DNA of 64,000 nucleotides from a virus. Taxonomy: Duplodnaviria > Caudoviricetes. The notes under the pieces were generated by a model, which saw only the letters and a list, made by a program, of their open reading frames with translations, had not been told where the DNA came from and ran no database searches. The stretch is from positions 1 to 64,000 of the IMG/VR virus record IMGVR_UViG_2814123203_000002; one strand, 5' to 3'. A program made the translations under genes and the position numbers. Positions 8,225 through 28,171 of this stretch are shown one piece after another. Positions within the stretch are counted from its first letter, which is position 1. Each line of letters begins with the position of its first letter.

Positions 8225-8513
8225 ACCCCACCTAAATGGTAGGGTTTTTGCTTACCATAGATGGTTTATATCGTAGGTCTGAGACTCCTCGCCGTCCCAT
8301 TCACTTATGTATTCCTCTATTGTATTGCGCACGTGTTCCCCTGCTTTTCGATACGACATCCCAATATGATCAGCTTCTCCATACACATGGCTCTTGAGGC
8401 AGCCCATATCAAAAAATATGTGCGGCTTGTCAAGTACCACTAAACAGCAAGCCTTGATGATTAGTGTGGGTAAATGCGTACCCTTCTTGATTTACATAAA
8501 GAATAGTCCCCCA
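8225..8513. repeat. Segment with a diverged, internally deleted copy at 63358-63509
   Basis: Shared hairpin, TTGCTTACCATAGATGGTTT, AAAAAATATGTGCG, CCTTGATGATTAGTGTGGGTA and TACATAAAGAATAGT blocks in the same order. Confidence 0.85.
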
Positions 8514-8550
8514 GTCGAACGACTGAGTAAATGCTTTCTTTAGTTCATCC

Positions 8551-8820
8551 TTATACTTTACTTTCCTCCTTAAGATTCAAATATCTTTTATGGTAGTATT
8601 GCTGACATTCTGAGCAATACTCAGGGTTTTCTTTGTTCCCGTGTGGGGATGATGGAAAGTCCATCTGTCCGCCGCATTGAGGACATAACCCTTTCTCTGT
8701 ACGTTCTTCTCTAATTCTCCTTTGCCTGGTTCTCTCAAAGCACTTTCGAGAGCAGTCTACTGCCCGAGGATGTTTGGAAACAAAAGATTTTTGACAATCG
8801 GGAGCTATACACTTTTTCAT
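8551..8820 (-). CDS. Small double zinc-finger-like protein
   Basis: Four Cys pairs: CIAPDC, CSRKC, CPQC, CSEC. Confidence 0.65.
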   Translation of the reverse strand: MKKCIAPDCQKSFVSKHPRAVDCSRKCFERTRQRRIREERTEKGLCPQCGGQMDFPSSPHGNKENPEYCSECQQYYHKRYLNLKEESKV

Positions 8821-9087
8821 TCATCTCAATCCTTCTATGTCCATGATAAAATATGAGGTCATCTCATCCACATATTTCTTTTTTGATGTTTGTATTCGGC
8901 GGGAAGCTCCATACATTTTCTTTCCTTCACAATATACATTGGAGGATGAGGATATTATTATTTCGCTTATTTCACTTGACATATCCCAAGTGAAATAATA
9001 GTATCTTCCATATGTACCGCCTGAGACCCTGTCATACAATTCCGCTGCCCTTTCTTGAAATTCTTTTATTAGCTCCATTTCAATCAC
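8821..9087 (-). CDS. Hypothetical protein, 88 aa
   Basis: Translationally coupled to the downstream ORF; GAGGTG at the start region. Confidence 0.55.
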   Translation of the reverse strand: MIEMELIKEFQERAAELYDRVSGGTYGRYYYFTWDMSSEISEIIISSSSNVYCEGKKMYGASRRIQTSKKKYVDEMTSYFIMDIEGLR

Positions 9088-9132
9088 CTCTGATAATTGT
9101 AATAATCATGTTCATCGTAGCATGGAATTAAA

Positions 9133-9213
9133 GTTGTAATTTAGTACCTATTAAGGAATTGAAACATGGATTTGTATTTTATCTGTTATGAAATACCTAT
9201 AAGGAATTGAAAC
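9133..9213 (+). CRISPR. Mini array: two type I-B-like repeats with a 19-nt spacer
   Basis: GTTGTAATTTAGTACCTATTAAGGAATTGAAAC (9133-9165) and GTTATGAAATACCTATAAGGAATTGAAAC (9185-9213) fit the GTTT...TACCTATAAGGAATTGAAAC family of Bacillota. Confidence 0.8.
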
Positions 9214-9266
9214 AACTAATCCAATGTTTCTTTAGAAGAACCCATTATTTTTTGGGGCGACCGCCC

Positions 9267-9770
9267 TCAGAGCCATTCTACGTCGTACCGTTCTTCGACG
9301 CGATCAATCACTTCGGATGTCTTTTCCTCTATGATTTCATCAAGTGCGATTTCTTCCCATTTTAAAATAATTTCTTCTGCTTTTTCGGGCAACAACTCGG
9401 AAAACGTTGCCCACTTGTACAGATTATCTTCGATATATCCGTCGTAACGCCCTTCGGCGTTTTTACGTAAGATCTCCCTGTATTCCTCCAAAAGGGATGA
9501 ATCTCCGTCTAGTTCGTTTTTAAGTTCGTCGTCCATATGCAAATGGTCGATGGGGTAGAACCATTTTTGCGTTGTAATCCCAATAATGTTCTCTCCCTCT
9601 AGCCAGTTGTTATGGCCCGCGAAAACCTCGGTGAAGAACTCTGTTGCTTCTTCACCATTGTGCCTAGCGTAAAGTTGGACCTCGCCACCGCGTTTTCTGT
9701 ACTCAGCGGCTTTCTTAATACACTTTTCTACCGCTATTTTACACTTTTCTAAATCAATTTTAATTTTCAT
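9267..9770 (-). CDS. Acidic hypothetical protein, 167 aa (anti-CRISPR candidate)
   Basis: AGGAGG RBS, own promoter, D/E-rich C-terminal half; function inferred from context only. Confidence 0.6.
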   Translation of the reverse strand: MKIKIDLEKCKIAVEKCIKKAAEYRKRGGEVQLYARHNGEEATEFFTEVFAGHNNWLEGENIIGITTQKWFYPIDHLHMDDELKNELDGDSSLLEEYREILRKNAEGRYDGYIEDNLYKWATFSELLPEKAEEIILKWEEIALDEIIEEKTSEVIDRVEERYDVEWL

Positions 9771-9826: not shown

Positions 9827-9877
9827 ATAAATCTACACGAACGTGAAGATTTTGTCAACACGTTCGTGTAGATTTAT
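9827..9877. promoter_or_regulatory. Perfect 19-bp inverted repeat enclosing a minus-strand promoter
   Basis: ATAAATCTACACGAACGTG-N13-CACGTTCGTGTAGATTTAT; minus-strand TTGACA (9858-9853)-N17-TAGATT (9835-9830). Confidence 0.85.
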
Positions 9878-9915
9878 TTGAATTTATTTCGTAGAATAGG
9901 TATGAGGTGGTAATT

Positions 9916-10128
9916 ATGCTGAGCTTTGATCCTCTACGTGAGTGGTTTAACAAAACGGGAAGACAACGCACTGATATGTATATAGACTGCGGATTCGCTC
10001 CGCAAACAGTCGCGAAAGTATGGGGAGATCGGTTTCCGATACGAACCGATGTGATAGAGAAAATCTGCGAAACATATGGCCTGCGGATCGAGCAGGTACT
10101 TGTTTGGAAAAACGAGGAGGATAAGTAG
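9916..10128 (+). CDS. Small Cro/C1-type HTH protein
   Basis: MLSFDPL...GFAPQTVAKV...TDVIEKICETYGLRIEQVL is an HTH_26-like pattern; GAGGTG RBS. Confidence 0.8.
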   Translation: MLSFDPLREWFNKTGRQRTDMYIDCGFAPQTVAKVWGDRFPIRTDVIEKICETYGLRIEQVLVWKNEEDK

Positions 10129-25342: not shown

Positions 25343-26269
25343 CTAGAATACGTACTCATCAAGAGCACCCGCCTCATGTGAGTCATCAATTATTCGTCTT
25401 CCCCTTGCATAGTCTATATCTAGATACATACGACTAGCACTATACCATGAGCCGCGATCTACCACCTCGGCTGCGTATGCTAGTGGTATTGACGGATGGG
25501 TATACCCAACGATATCCCCTTCACGTATTTCCGTAGGATTCGGCACGCTCAGATACTCCGCAGGCACCTTCAGCCCCAGCGCACGCCTGAACGCAATTGC
25601 CCGACCGATATGCGAATTAAAGACGTCGCCGGGTGCGCATTTTGCGATACCTCTTTTGTAAATCTCCTTTTTAGCGGCACTGCGAAGCAGGCACACTACC
25701 GTTTTCTTTTTGCGATTAACAATATACTCTGCGGATGAAGCGCCTGTGCCATTTATTTTATAAAACGAACTGAGGTTGCTCGTAATACGTCTAATAAAAT
25801 CTTCAAGCCCCTTGAGATCAGCCTTCGCTTTTTCCACGATCTCATCACGGATTTCTTGTGGCGACTTCTCGGTTTGCTGCTTCGGTCCTTCCAGCTTTGA
25901 TACGCGGAGGGCCAACGTTGCCAGTTCGCCTGTAAGTCGTTCCATTTCGCTCTTGATGGCGGAGATTTCGTCGGGTTCTTCGGATTCGTCGATTGGCTCA
26001 AGGACTACGTATTCACTACTCCAGAGAGTGTACAACCGCCCCTCCTCGTCCTCGTCCTCGTCGCCGATACGCCTACACAAGACACCATTAGCACAAGTTT
26101 TAATAACTTCAAACTCATCCCCATTCTCGTAGTAACGCCCCCAGTACGGCTCCGCATCAACTGCCCGAATCTTTTCTCCTACCTTAGCATCTCGTTTAAC
26201 CTCACGGTATTTTACATTTCCCATACCCGATTCCTCCCTTGATTTTGGTATAGACTTGCGATATCGCAA
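25343..26269 (-). CDS. Hypothetical phage protein
   Basis: Long ORF with GIAKCAPGDVFNSHIGRAIA motif, also seen in 30543..31040. Confidence 0.6.
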   Translation of the reverse strand: MRYRKSIPKSREESGMGNVKYREVKRDAKVGEKIRAVDAEPYWGRYYENGDEFEVIKTCANGVLCRRIGDEDEDEEGRLYTLWSSEYVVLEPIDESEEPDEISAIKSEMERLTGELATLALRVSKLEGPKQQTEKSPQEIRDEIVEKAKADLKGLEDFIRRITSNLSSFYKINGTGASSAEYIVNRKKKTVVCLLRSAAKKEIYKRGIAKCAPGDVFNSHIGRAIAFRRALGLKVPAEYLSVPNPTEIREGDIVGYTHPSIPLAYAAEVVDRGSWYSASRMYLDIDYARGRRIIDDSHEAGALDEYVF

Positions 26270-26633
26270 TTACCGTTCTTCCCAGTTAATTATTCGTACA
26301 CTTGTTACATATTGACAGATGTCGTCATCGTGTTCAATTTCCAACAGGTCCCCATTTGAGTCGAAAAGTTTTAGGCATTTTACATACCCCTCACCGTCTA
26401 GCTCGATGTGTTTTTTATTTTCCGGAAACCCCATATTCAGCGGCTCACCTGTCTCTAGATCGCCTACTGCGAACCGGAGAATGTCCCAACCAAGGCAATT
26501 CCCCCGAGTTGATAGATAACGACTGCCTTATACTCCCCGTGTTGCAGGACAACCTCAACAATGTGAACAGTATCTTTTGGATAAGACCACTCTCCTACGT
26601 ATGCCTCTACGGTGTGCCCGATCAACTCAACGT

Positions 26634-27101
26634 TCAATTTAACGCCCCCTTAAGCTTTCCTCTATAAAACGACCTCATATCGTCTTTCTCGATGATCGCT
26701 GGCGAATATGGGTCATTTTCTATTAGCATCCTTGCTTTCTTCCAAGGGTCTTCACTATGGGTTAAAGCTTCTAACACTTTTGCATCAAGCCGCCCATACT
26801 TTTTCCAAACTTGCTTTAATACATGTAGTCCGTTGTCATCAAAAATTGAGTCTTGAAAGCTTTTTGTATCTTCTTTAATCGGGCTCCAACCAAATTCCCT
26901 GTAATCAAGATAAAGTTTGTAGTTTACTGGGCCGTGAACCCAAGCTTCAAATTCATCATCAAACATAGGTGCCTGATAGAAAGCCAGATGCCATGCTTGT
27001 GCATAGTAACATAGTTTCTGCAATTTAAGATGACTTAAAGGCTCATTCCGTGAGTTTGCACATTTGATGAAGTACTTTGCTACCTCGTATATGGTTACCA
27101 T
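26634..27101 (-). CDS. Panacea-domain (DUF4065/SocA/GepA) antitoxin-like protein
   Basis: LKLQKLCYYAQ, FEAWVHGPV, LTHSEDPW. Confidence 0.9.
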   Translation of the reverse strand: MVTIYEVAKYFIKCANSRNEPLSHLKLQKLCYYAQAWHLAFYQAPMFDDEFEAWVHGPVNYKLYLDYREFGWSPIKEDTKSFQDSIFDDNGLHVLKQVWKKYGRLDAKVLEALTHSEDPWKKARMLIENDPYSPAIIEKDDMRSFYRGKLKGALN

Positions 27102-27412
27102 ACTTCCTCCCCTACAGGCTCACCGAAATCAATCTCCTCATGGCGGTTTCCATCATTGACACTTGCGCATAGTTCTTCGAGTCTAGGTGCCGATTTACGC
27201 CTAAGTAGCTGTAACATATCCTCGCCAGTTAACCCGATAACCACATAATCCTCACGGTTTCGCTTAAACCGGTTGCTCCAGTAAGACAGTGCCCATTTTG
27301 CAGTCCCTTCGGTGCGGTATGCAGACTTGCCCGCTGCCATACAACCACCAGTCTTTCGATTTACGATAACCCAGATATTCCAATCTTCCCCGCGTGTATA
27401 CGTAAATTTCAA
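27095..27412 (-). CDS. Chimeric protein with a MazE-like C-terminal tail
   Basis: Ends LEELCASVNDGNRHEEIDFGEPVGEEVW, like the MazE tail ...LHENIDWGEPKDKEVW; no AbrB domain. Confidence 0.65.
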   Translation of the reverse strand: MKFTYTRGEDWNIWVIVNRKTGGCMAAGKSAYRTEGTAKWALSYWSNRFKRNREDYVVIGLTGEDMLQLLRRKSAPRLEELCASVNDGNRHEEIDFGEPVGEEVW

Positions 27413-27540
27413 ATTAAGCGTCCTCCTTCCTCATATCCTCGATAACGGACTTCATATCGTTGATAATTTGCAGTTTAAGTTCGTCCCGATCAATCTTCCT
27501 TCCGTGTTCAAACAGAGTGCCTTTAGTTTATGGTCGAGAC

Positions 27541-27780
27541 TCATTCTTCGTCCTCCTCGTTTTCGTGTACAATTTCGAGTGGCTCTCCGTTCTTGCCAGC
27601 CTCGTACGCCTGTTTGATCCAGCCTTCGATGCTATATACGAAGCTTAAATTACGCTCTAACATCGCATCTTCCGGGTCCCCACTCAAGCATCCGATGTCA
27701 AAACCACCCCTTCCATCGATGTCCATTTCGAGTCTTGCGCACTCATTCCAATCTTCTCCGTGCGTAAAGGTAATTTTCAT
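27541..27780 (-). CDS. Acidic hypothetical phage protein
   Basis: MKITFTHGEDWNE start after a GGAGGAG RBS. Confidence 0.6.
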   Translation of the reverse strand: MKITFTHGEDWNECARLEMDIDGRGGFDIGCLSGDPEDAMLERNLSFVYSIEGWIKQAYEAGKNGEPLEIVHENEEDEE

Positions 27781-27781
27781 A

Positions 27782-28171
27782 TTAAGACTCCTCCGTATAT
27801 TTTTTATATTGGTACGCTGCACGCTGGGCCTCTCTTGTACCACTAATCGGAGCCCCCACGCGCAGGGCCTCTTTGACAAAATCTTCGTCTCCGTCCCCAC
27901 ACGGTAGGCCTTGCGTAAACTGATACCAATGTACAAGCTCGTGTAATAAAGCATCGAGAACACCAGATCTCGGCATTTTTGCGTTTACCTTCCTACTGAA
28001 CCGGAGCACAATCGTGCCGTCATTGTAGGCGGTGAAATAACCAATGCGACGTTTCCAGTCTCGGTTAACCAGTTCGATTTTCCCCGTATACTCGGTCGAC
28101 CAGTGTTTACGGCACAGTCTATTTGCATGATCGTAAAGCTCTTGGAGAGTCATATCGCCAGTGTCCGGCAT
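27782..28171 (-). CDS. SprT-like zinc metalloprotease domain protein
   Basis: LLHELVHW (HExxH). Confidence 0.75.
   Translation of the reverse strand: MPDTGDMTLQELYDHANRLCRKHWSTEYTGKIELVNRDWKRRIGYFTAYNDGTIVLRFSRKVNAKMPRSGVLDALLHELVHWYQFTQGLPCGDGDEDFVKEALRVGAPISGTREAQRAAYQYKKYTEES

Follow-up and report, generated by a model that had tools for sequence, protein, structure and literature searches.

The window analysed here, that is, the whole 64-kb stretch of DNA, belongs to a viral record of 100,830 bp (32% G+C) that encodes a PolIII-alpha-like polymerase, ribonucleotide reductase, RecJ, primase, a DnaB-like helicase, Sak4, and RtcB. At 9133-9213, the plus strand of the window carries two type I-B-like CRISPR repeats with a 19-nt pseudo-spacer between them, and the genes on both sides are encoded on the minus strand (Table 1). 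This arrangement, hereafter termed the unit, agrees with what the preliminary description of the same DNA had claimed, and the comparison of the two repeats bears out its additional claim that their 3' halves are conserved and their 5' halves are different. Positions 9080-9280 of the window are 100% identical over 200 nt to pPLP3 (NZ_CP020558.1; circular, 128,414 bp), found in P. larvae SAG 10367, and the order of the genes around the unit is alike in the two. In our reading, the window represents a P. larvae phage-plasmid resembling pPLP3.

The region at ~6.5-11 kb, in which the unit resides, has a G+C content of 38-48% within an element of 32% G+C, and bears ~84% identity to parts of the temperate phage Scottie (MH460825). 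A second Scottie-like patch was noticed at ~25,500-27,900 of the window (a DUF4065/antitoxin region). Among the proteins encoded near the unit, no family was found in PHROGs or Pfam except an HTH, RuvC, and RNase H, and no cas gene was detected. The 167-aa protein has a 150-aa homologue near the unit in the IMG/VR provirus UViG_2814123203_000007 (hereafter the provirus), and the Atlas yielded no usable result for it. A search for related loci with the 88-aa protein and the Scottie amidase reached none from P. larvae. Family-less small genes surround the unit (8252-9770 of the window; 849-2430 of locus L003), several of which end in ...VEW(L/I/R) or ...NHLW, and the provirus has the same genes in another order. 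One of them, a 62-aa ORF (8252-8440), resembles a truncated copy of a 105-aa gene of the provirus, and another, an 89-aa ORF (8551-8820) without any family match, contains four Cys pairs that are CxxC-like and have the look of a zinc ribbon. A perfect 19-bp inverted repeat with a 13-nt gap (9827-9877) overlaps a promoter-like TTGACA-17-TAGATT on the minus strand and lies just upstream of a gene for a 73-aa Cro/C1-type HTH protein (9907-10128) and a 208-aa family-less gene; the inverted repeat looks like an operator. In SV21, an annotated antirestriction gene lies ~400 nt from the unit. Altogether, the surroundings are suggestive, and nothing more than suggestive, of an accessory or anti-defence island.

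Table 1. Features in and around the unit (positions in the window)
Feature	Position	Strand	Basis
88-aa gene, SCOTTIE_21 homologue, no family	8821..9087	-	ORF list, PHROGs/Pfam
Promoter-like TTGACA-17-TAGTAT, 10/12	8976..9004	+	scan; consensus match only
Weak promoter-like TTCATC-18-TGTAAT	9111..9140	+	read by eye; absent from scan output
Repeat 1, near full-length, type I-B-like: GTTGTAATTTAGTACCTATTAAGGAATTGAAAC, its end ...GTACCTATTAAGGAATTGAAAC at 9165	9133..9165	+	Rfam CRISPR-DR2 alignment, predicted fold
Mini-hairpin of repeat 1	CCT 9147-9149 / AGG 9154-9156	+	predicted fold
8-nt 5' handle ATTGAAAC of repeat 1	9158-9165	+	last 7 nt invariant in 5/5 backbones
Pseudo-spacer ATGGATTTGTATTTTATCT, 19 nt	9166..9184	+	sequence
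16-nt core of the pseudo-spacer	9166-9181	+	identical in window/pPLP3, Scottie, SV21, provirus, and 48.7-kb plasmid
Repeat 2 GTTATGAAATACCTATAAGGAATTGAAAC, 29 nt	9185..9213	+	Rfam CRISPR-DR2 alignment
Mini-hairpin of repeat 2	CCT 9196-9198 / AGG 9202-9204	+	sequence
Handle of repeat 2	9206-9213	+	sequence
Conserved tail AACTAATCCAATGTTTCTTTAGAAGAACCC	9214..9243	+	alignment with relatives
167-aa gene, convergent on the unit, no family	9267..9770	-	ORF list, PHROGs/Pfam

Both repeats align over the full length of the Rfam family CRISPR-DR2 (model positions 1-30), repeat 2 at 28 bits (E 0.004) and repeat 1 at 20.4 bits (E 0.44); both values are below the gathering score of 37, and Rfam at that threshold reported nothing for the unit. 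An exact 15-nt direct repeat, TAAGGAATTGAAACA, occurs at 9152-9166 and 9200-9214 (48 nt apart) and corresponds to the 3' ends of the repeats plus one base. The 14-mer TAAGGAATTGAAAC is found exactly twice in the 64-kb window, both times in the repeats, and 6 matches against 2.0 expected were recovered from the window when up to 2 mismatches were allowed. The handle sequence is found 10 times over both strands of the 100,830-bp record, and only the two copies in the unit are preceded by AAGGA. From what is known of type I-B systems, we take the Cas6 site in repeat 2 to lie between 9205 and 9206. In the tail, GTTTCT (9226-9231) resembles the start of a third repeat, and the bases at 9218-9230 are predicted to pair with those at 9161-9172 (GAAACATGGATT). 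The alignment indicates that the tail in the window has kept the 5' arm of an ancestral terminator, with the 3' arm missing. The predicted fold of the unit in the window is not unusual (z -1.1), in comparison with z values of -3.8 and -3.9 for the counterparts in Scottie and the provirus, respectively. A canonical type I-B array, defined here by repeats of ~30 nt, spacers of ~34-37 nt, and adjoining cas genes or a leader, is not what we see: the unit comprises only two repeats and a 19-nt spacer, and has no cas gene among its neighbours.

The unit was found in phage Scottie, phage SV21 (MZ218124), and the provirus as well, and a further form of it occurs in four P. larvae plasmids of 48.7-50 kb (NZ_CP019658, CP019661, CP019796, and CP020329). 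Thus, five backbones carry the unit, namely a phage-plasmid, a siphovirus, SV21, a provirus, and a mobilizable plasmid; the preliminary description had made its reading depend on conservation in relatives, and such conservation was observed directly. A stretch of 23 nt, TTGAAAC + ATGGATTTGTATTTTA, is invariant in the alignment of all five backbones, and the loop of repeat 1 (ATTA, AATA, ATA, ATA or ATG) and its 5' part vary among them. The core has been kept through three downstream architectures: a truncated direct repeat (the Scottie type), a full direct repeat (the window), and an inverted repeat (the 48.7-kb plasmids). Compared with its relatives, the window has a different, full-length sequence as repeat 2. 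In Scottie, the last 9 nt of the pseudo-spacer together with repeat 2 are identical to real repeats at 27 of 30 positions. In the plasmids, a predicted promoter (TTTACA-17-TATGTT) is followed by repeat 1 ending in TTTGAAAC, the 16-nt core, the inverted repeat, and a terminator, and this form is predicted to fold into a long hairpin with the core on top and repeat 1 locked inside (z -3.7). In the window, Scottie, and the provirus, the first 7 nt of the pseudo-spacer plus GAAAC would form a long-range stem with the tail, as the predicted folds of the three copies pair GAAACAUGGAUU with AAUCCA(A)UGUUUC of the tail; the tail is absent from SV21.

The close kin of Scottie, namely Unity, Heath, and Halcyone, retain 98-100% identity until ~60-80 nt before the promoter of the unit, from which point the similarity is lost (the breakpoint being judged from the query ranges of the similarity search), and SV21 shares only ~160 nt. 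These two observations suggest that the unit moves as a small cassette. Further copies were sought with the exact 28-mer in the genome contigs database (none), with the tail and promoter patterns in IMG/VR (only the provirus), and in JGI metagenomes (12 loci, none with a repeat context); a scan of the 136 genomes of the family of G001 found only ordinary arrays. When only plasmids were counted, the unit was carried by 5 of the 6 complete-genome strains with at least 95 spacers and by none of the 3 strains with at most 17 spacers, a count in which three strains were paired by neighbouring accessions and four strains are close kin. Apart from P. larvae, analogous units were noticed in the Parageobacillus phage JGon-2020a (L293, 340-500) and IMGVR_UViG_3300025519_000023 (L301, 240-400), both consisting of a promoter, a repeat, a pseudo-spacer of ~20 nt, a second repeat ending exactly at the predicted Cas6 site, and a terminator.

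Scottie, SV21, the provirus, and the 48.7-kb plasmid all have a predicted promoter directly upstream of the unit, unlike the window, for which the preliminary description had already reported no convincing promoter on the plus strand. In Scottie, SV21, and the provirus, TTGAC(G/C)-17-TATACT lies just upstream of the unit (found by the scan at 10/12 in Scottie), and the units of Scottie and the provirus end in a terminator stem of 10-12 bp followed by a T run. In the window, the place of this promoter is occupied by the weak TTCATC-18-TGTAAT (Table 1), no terminator was found for the unit, and the nearest plus-strand site returned by the scan is the one at 8976-9004. The latter is antisense within the 88-aa gene and could provide read-through into the unit. 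The Scottie counterpart of this site reads CTGACA...TAGTAC, so that both hexamers are nearer to the consensus in the window, which is the copy lacking the unit's own promoter. The window copy may be poorly expressed.

The unit imitates a widespread family of type I-B repeats, as judged from the pattern ACCTATNAGGAATTGAAAC, which marks ordinary arrays at no fewer than 125 loci in many Bacillota and other phyla. We examined one chromosome in detail, the 4.29-Mb genome G116, which contains a prophage with 90-92% identity to the provirus and spacers matching the P. larvae phages Unity (35/36), LunBun, and Ash, with the flanks TCA, TGA, and TCG. The provirus-like prophage and these spacers, put together, indicate that G116 is P. 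larvae or very close to it. The matches by type I-B spacers further imply that the P. larvae phages of Scottie's cluster are under type I-B pressure. The spacer matching Unity (19465-19500 of L208 against L378; TCA upstream) is also matched over 29 nt in Scottie, Heath, and Halcyone. In an earlier survey that counted exact matches only, the accessible text reported no protospacers in the subcluster of Scottie and Unity (PMC7998209, 2021). A single type I-B operon was detected in G116, with Cas5b, Cas3, Cas4, and Cas1b above the cut-offs and Cas6 and Cas7 weak, along with a Cmr2 gene. The repeats of its active type I-B arrays, GTTTGA(C/T)AGTAACAC..GGTGTATTGAAAC, have the same 8-nt handle as the unit but a different body, and are separated by spacers of 34-37 nt. 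None of the seven type I-B spacers of G116 matched the genome of the window.

The repeat family seen in the phages is represented in G116 only by remnants at 2.748-2.750 Mb. These comprise one copy of the repeat, GTTTCTAACGTACCTATAAGGAATTGAAAC, together with a leader-like stretch, a degenerate repeat standing alone at 2,748,489, and a degenerate repeat-38 nt-repeat arrangement. Repeat 1 of SV21 is identical to the lone repeat at 2,748,489 over 23 nt. No Cas protein was found among the 16 ORFs tested near the remnants. The decayed locus (G116:C1:2747900-2750300; L203) includes two paralogous ORFs of ~160 aa that belong to no family. Thus, a type I-B locus cognate to the repeats of the unit is absent from G116, the one P. 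larvae-like chromosome searched.

For comparison with host crRNA-like regulators, we searched for the gapped pattern AGGAATTGAAAC-N(12-36)-ACCTANNAGGA, by which normal spacer lengths are left out, and recovered 2 viral and 51 genomic loci, many of the latter being arrays with odd short spacers. Twelve host loci resemble crRNA-like regulators in possessing a degenerate repeat 1 and a repeat 2 ending at AGGA. In ten of them, all of the GGAATTGAAAC repeat family (L307, L308, L309, L313, L321, L322, L331, L334, L336, and L343), the pseudo-spacer matches 11-19 nt of a site on the same strand 43-140 nt away, which lies upstream in nine cases and downstream in one and is preceded by TTA in nine and by TTG in one. 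Mismatches often fall at position 6 or 12. The match extends into the 5' part of repeat 2, and the host guides can thus be described as compact. The distance from the handle to ACCTA is 21-25 nt in L308, L313, L322, L331, and L336, 20 nt in Scottie, and 29 nt in the window. The ORF divergent from the host unit matched Cas8b in three of the nine cases tested, all below the cut-off and with the ORFs cut by the ends of the loci. The ten host units are likely CreR/CreA elements, implying a TTA PAM. Their pattern is that described for type I-B CreR/CreA in the accessible part of 10.1101/2023.03.10.532045.

The preliminary description had proposed searching the pseudo-spacer against the host cas promoter and other mobile elements; the search was run and provided no convincing target. 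In G116, 33 sites with up to 3 mismatches were found against 28 for the control, and a 12-mer had no exact match. The promoter of cas6 in G116 was considered (13/18 over the -35 box) and rejected for a mismatch at position 3 of the seed and an AAA flank, which is unlike the TCA, TGA, and TCG at the three phage protospacers of the G116 system. Matches in the window's own genome were at the level of shuffled sequences, and only the unit itself was matched in Scottie, SV21, the provirus, Unity, LunBun, Ash, pPLP3, and the 48.7-kb plasmid. A search for TTA + pseudo-spacer in 401 Paenibacillales genomes gave matches at the control level, the best of which were rejected: the interior of a glycosidase-like gene in G147, an unrelated intergenic stretch in G053, and a palindromic operator common to four genomes, two of which were inspected. 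In IMG/VR, 63 loci matched the 17-mer exactly, and all but one, the unit, were in unrelated contigs. Two further ideas gained no support: the spacers in a supplement file of PMC7998209 do not include the core, as would be expected of a captured host spacer, and the tail, taken as a possible second guide, matched 10 sites in G116, each with 3 mismatches.

To count as a Cracr, an RNA should have 9 or more PAM-proximal bases in common with a host CreR/CreA and a target at the cas or creT promoter. No host CreR/CreA sharing the pseudo-spacer was found in G116, the 136 and 401 Paenibacillales genomes, the genome contigs database (exact 28-mer), or the metagenomes. The same logic applied to three Parageobacillus genomes yielded no target, the sole match being inside a gene. 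The absence of a target weighs little against a guide function, as G116, the only P. larvae-like chromosome searched, does not have the cognate locus.

Altogether, its sequence and distribution lead us to regard the unit as a genuine crRNA-like gene that is conserved among P. larvae mobile elements and belongs, as a new member, with the viral crRNA-like anti-CRISPR RNAs (Cracr/Racr). The anatomy of the unit, its conservation across five backbones, the promoter and terminator sequences of its relatives, and the matching build of the host units can be read directly from the DNA. Our preferred interpretation, held with about even confidence, is that the unit is a crRNA-like small-RNA gene of P. 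larvae mobile elements that most likely has an anti-CRISPR role and acts on the Cas proteins of the host. Its transcription, processing by Cas6, loading into Cascade, and target are all predicted steps. The transcript would consist of two type I-B-like repeats around a pseudo-spacer of 16-19 nt, and cleavage of each repeat by the host Cas6, 8 nt short of the end of the repeat, would release the handle, the guide, and part of repeat 2 as an RNA of ~48 nt in the window and ~39 nt in Scottie. The Cascade proteins of the host would then load onto the released RNA, which would draw Cas proteins off the real crRNAs. With a guide so short, DNA binding would be allowed and cutting by Cas3 would not. 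If the RNA works as a Cracr-type guide, Cas proteins would be steered to the host promoter of cas or a cas-safeguarding toxin in the strains with the cognate type I-B locus. Such a guide implies a PAM-flanked match to ATGGATTTGTA in the P. larvae chromosome, and the cognate host unit should read ATTGAAAC + ATGGATTTG... beside cas8b.

The preliminary description, which had proposed "Racr or regulatory guide", appears right as to the class, considering the conservation of the unit in relatives with promoters and its CreR/CreA-like build, while its guide part lacks a target. A guide is consistent with a core that persists in three 3' contexts and also in SV21, where the tail has been lost, with the start of the core exactly after the handle, and with a length like that of viral crRNA-like RNAs. 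The pseudo-spacers of the latter are mostly 17-21 nt in the accessible part of 10.1101/2024.10.29.618823. Nevertheless, the conservation of both halves of the pseudo-spacer can be accounted for in another way, as its first 7 nt pair with the tail and its last 9 nt in Scottie are repeat-like. A more far-reaching version, which we consider doubtful, is that phages, the 128-kb phage-plasmid, and mobilizable plasmids share one 16-nt guide and the type I-B handle as a kind of master key against a strain-specific defence locus (the cognate type I-B cas operon or a toxin safeguard), in at least three RNA packagings including the hairpin-displayed form. The hairpin-displayed form is not described for Cracrs.

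Several other explanations have to be weighed against the guide. Rather unlikely on its own, in our estimate, is a pure decoy of the Racr type, in which the RNA offers binding sites for Cas6, Cas5, and Cas7 and ends up in dead-end complexes, the "spacer" being a structural element made up of one stem strand and the 5' portion of repeat 2, rather than a guide. The pairing of the first 7 nt and GAAAC with the tail in three copies, the 27/30 identity of Scottie's downstream portion to real repeats, the burial of repeat 1 in a hairpin in the plasmid form, and the lack of a match to the pseudo-spacer in G116, the window's genome, the 401 Paenibacillales genomes, and the P. larvae elements all agree with a decoy, and single repeats of the unit's family occur among the viral Racr candidates in the accessible part of the PMC10651486 supplement. 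However, a decoy has no need of a core that stays unchanged despite a different full repeat in the window, an inverted repeat in the plasmids, and the loss of the tail in SV21, and the compact host units match nearby sites via the corresponding stretch. We place the guide slightly ahead of the decoy, and both fall within the known class of RNA anti-CRISPRs. It is quite improbable that the window unit is a hitch-hiking remnant that arrived with a Scottie-like accessory module and has lost its expression. The window has neither the TTGAC(G/C)-17-TATACT promoter nor the 3' arm of the terminator, its unit lies antisense inside a run of minus-strand genes with a fold weaker than those of its relatives (z -1.1 against -3.8 and -3.9), and the G+C content and the ~84% identity to Scottie of the ~6.5-11-kb region fit such an arrival. 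Against decay, both repeats are of full length, no damage is seen in the handle, the core, repeat 2, or the stem partner, and promoter-like sites are present at 8976-9004 and, in a weaker form, at 9111-9140.

We judge it very unlikely that the unit is a mini-array for competition between elements, by which the Cas proteins of the host would be guided against rival phages or plasmids, or would control the element's own genes. No second site was found in eight P. larvae element records, which cover few of the P. larvae phage clusters, and the exact 17-mer loci in IMG/VR are, except for the unit, in unrelated contigs. To our knowledge, a guide of 16-19 nt is too short for interference. Also highly improbable is a small RNA or DNA element that is structured but has no connection with Cas proteins, such as an antisense regulator with the core in a loop, whose likeness to repeats would be a matter of ancestry alone. 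The core topping a long hairpin in the 48.7-kb plasmids (z -3.7) and the long-range stems in the remaining forms would suit such an element. On the other hand, a search of both strands of G116 and the elements yielded no complementary site, the invariant block begins exactly inside the CRISPR handle, and both cleavage hairpins are retained with varying loops.

P. larvae is the agent of American foulbrood, a honeybee pathogen, and its phages are under development as treatments. As far as the accessible portions of PMC7998209 and PMC11860570 go, phages with protospacers still lyse CRISPR-bearing P. larvae, and a preliminary AcrFinder search gave no anti-CRISPR genes. The unit is a concrete candidate for a device by which such phages escape. 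Its guide-like core, common to phages and plasmids, would illustrate the extent to which RNA anti-CRISPRs pass from one type of element to another. The class has already been described, and the unit adds an example and a test system rather than a new principle.

Four known systems can be compared with the unit, each to the extent of the accessible parts of the cited reports. Like the viral mini-arrays of inter-virus conflict (PMC11656645), the unit is a one-spacer viral array with host-like repeats, but its spacer has only half the usual length, and a match to it is lacking in related viruses. With the Racrs (Camara-Wilpert et al., 2023; PMC10651486), it shares a repeat mimic on a mobile element without cas genes, located just downstream of a predicted promoter in the relatives of the window copy, and type I-B family repeats are among the candidates of that study; the unit differs in having two repeats and an invariant 16-nt insert instead of a single spacer-less repeat. 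The accessible supplement files of the same study gave no match to Paenibacillus, Scottie, the Scottie accessions, or the provirus identifier. The host type I-B CreR/CreA (10.1101/2023.03.10.532045; 10.1101/2023.03.03.530964) have a build common to the unit and the ten host units detected in this study, in which the handle is kept in repeat 1, 20-25 nt separate it from ACCTA of repeat 2, and the pseudo-spacer is T-rich. Unlike them, the unit lies outside a cas locus with no adjoining target, and its repeat 2 has a full handle followed by the conserved tail. As for the Cracrs (Liu et al., 10.1101/2024.10.29.618823), they were defined by a match to the pseudo-spacer of a host CreR/CreA, and neither such a match nor a promoter target was found for the unit in the sequences searched; moreover, one variant of the unit has an inverted second repeat. 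P. larvae elements may already be among the type I-B cases in Table S2 of that report. In the remaining respects, the unit resembles Cracrs: it occurs on phages and plasmids outside the cas locus, it consists of a degenerate repeat, a short pseudo-spacer (16-19 nt versus 17-21 nt in Cracrs), and a repeat, it has its own promoter in the relatives, and its second handle plus the tail may constitute a two-unit array.
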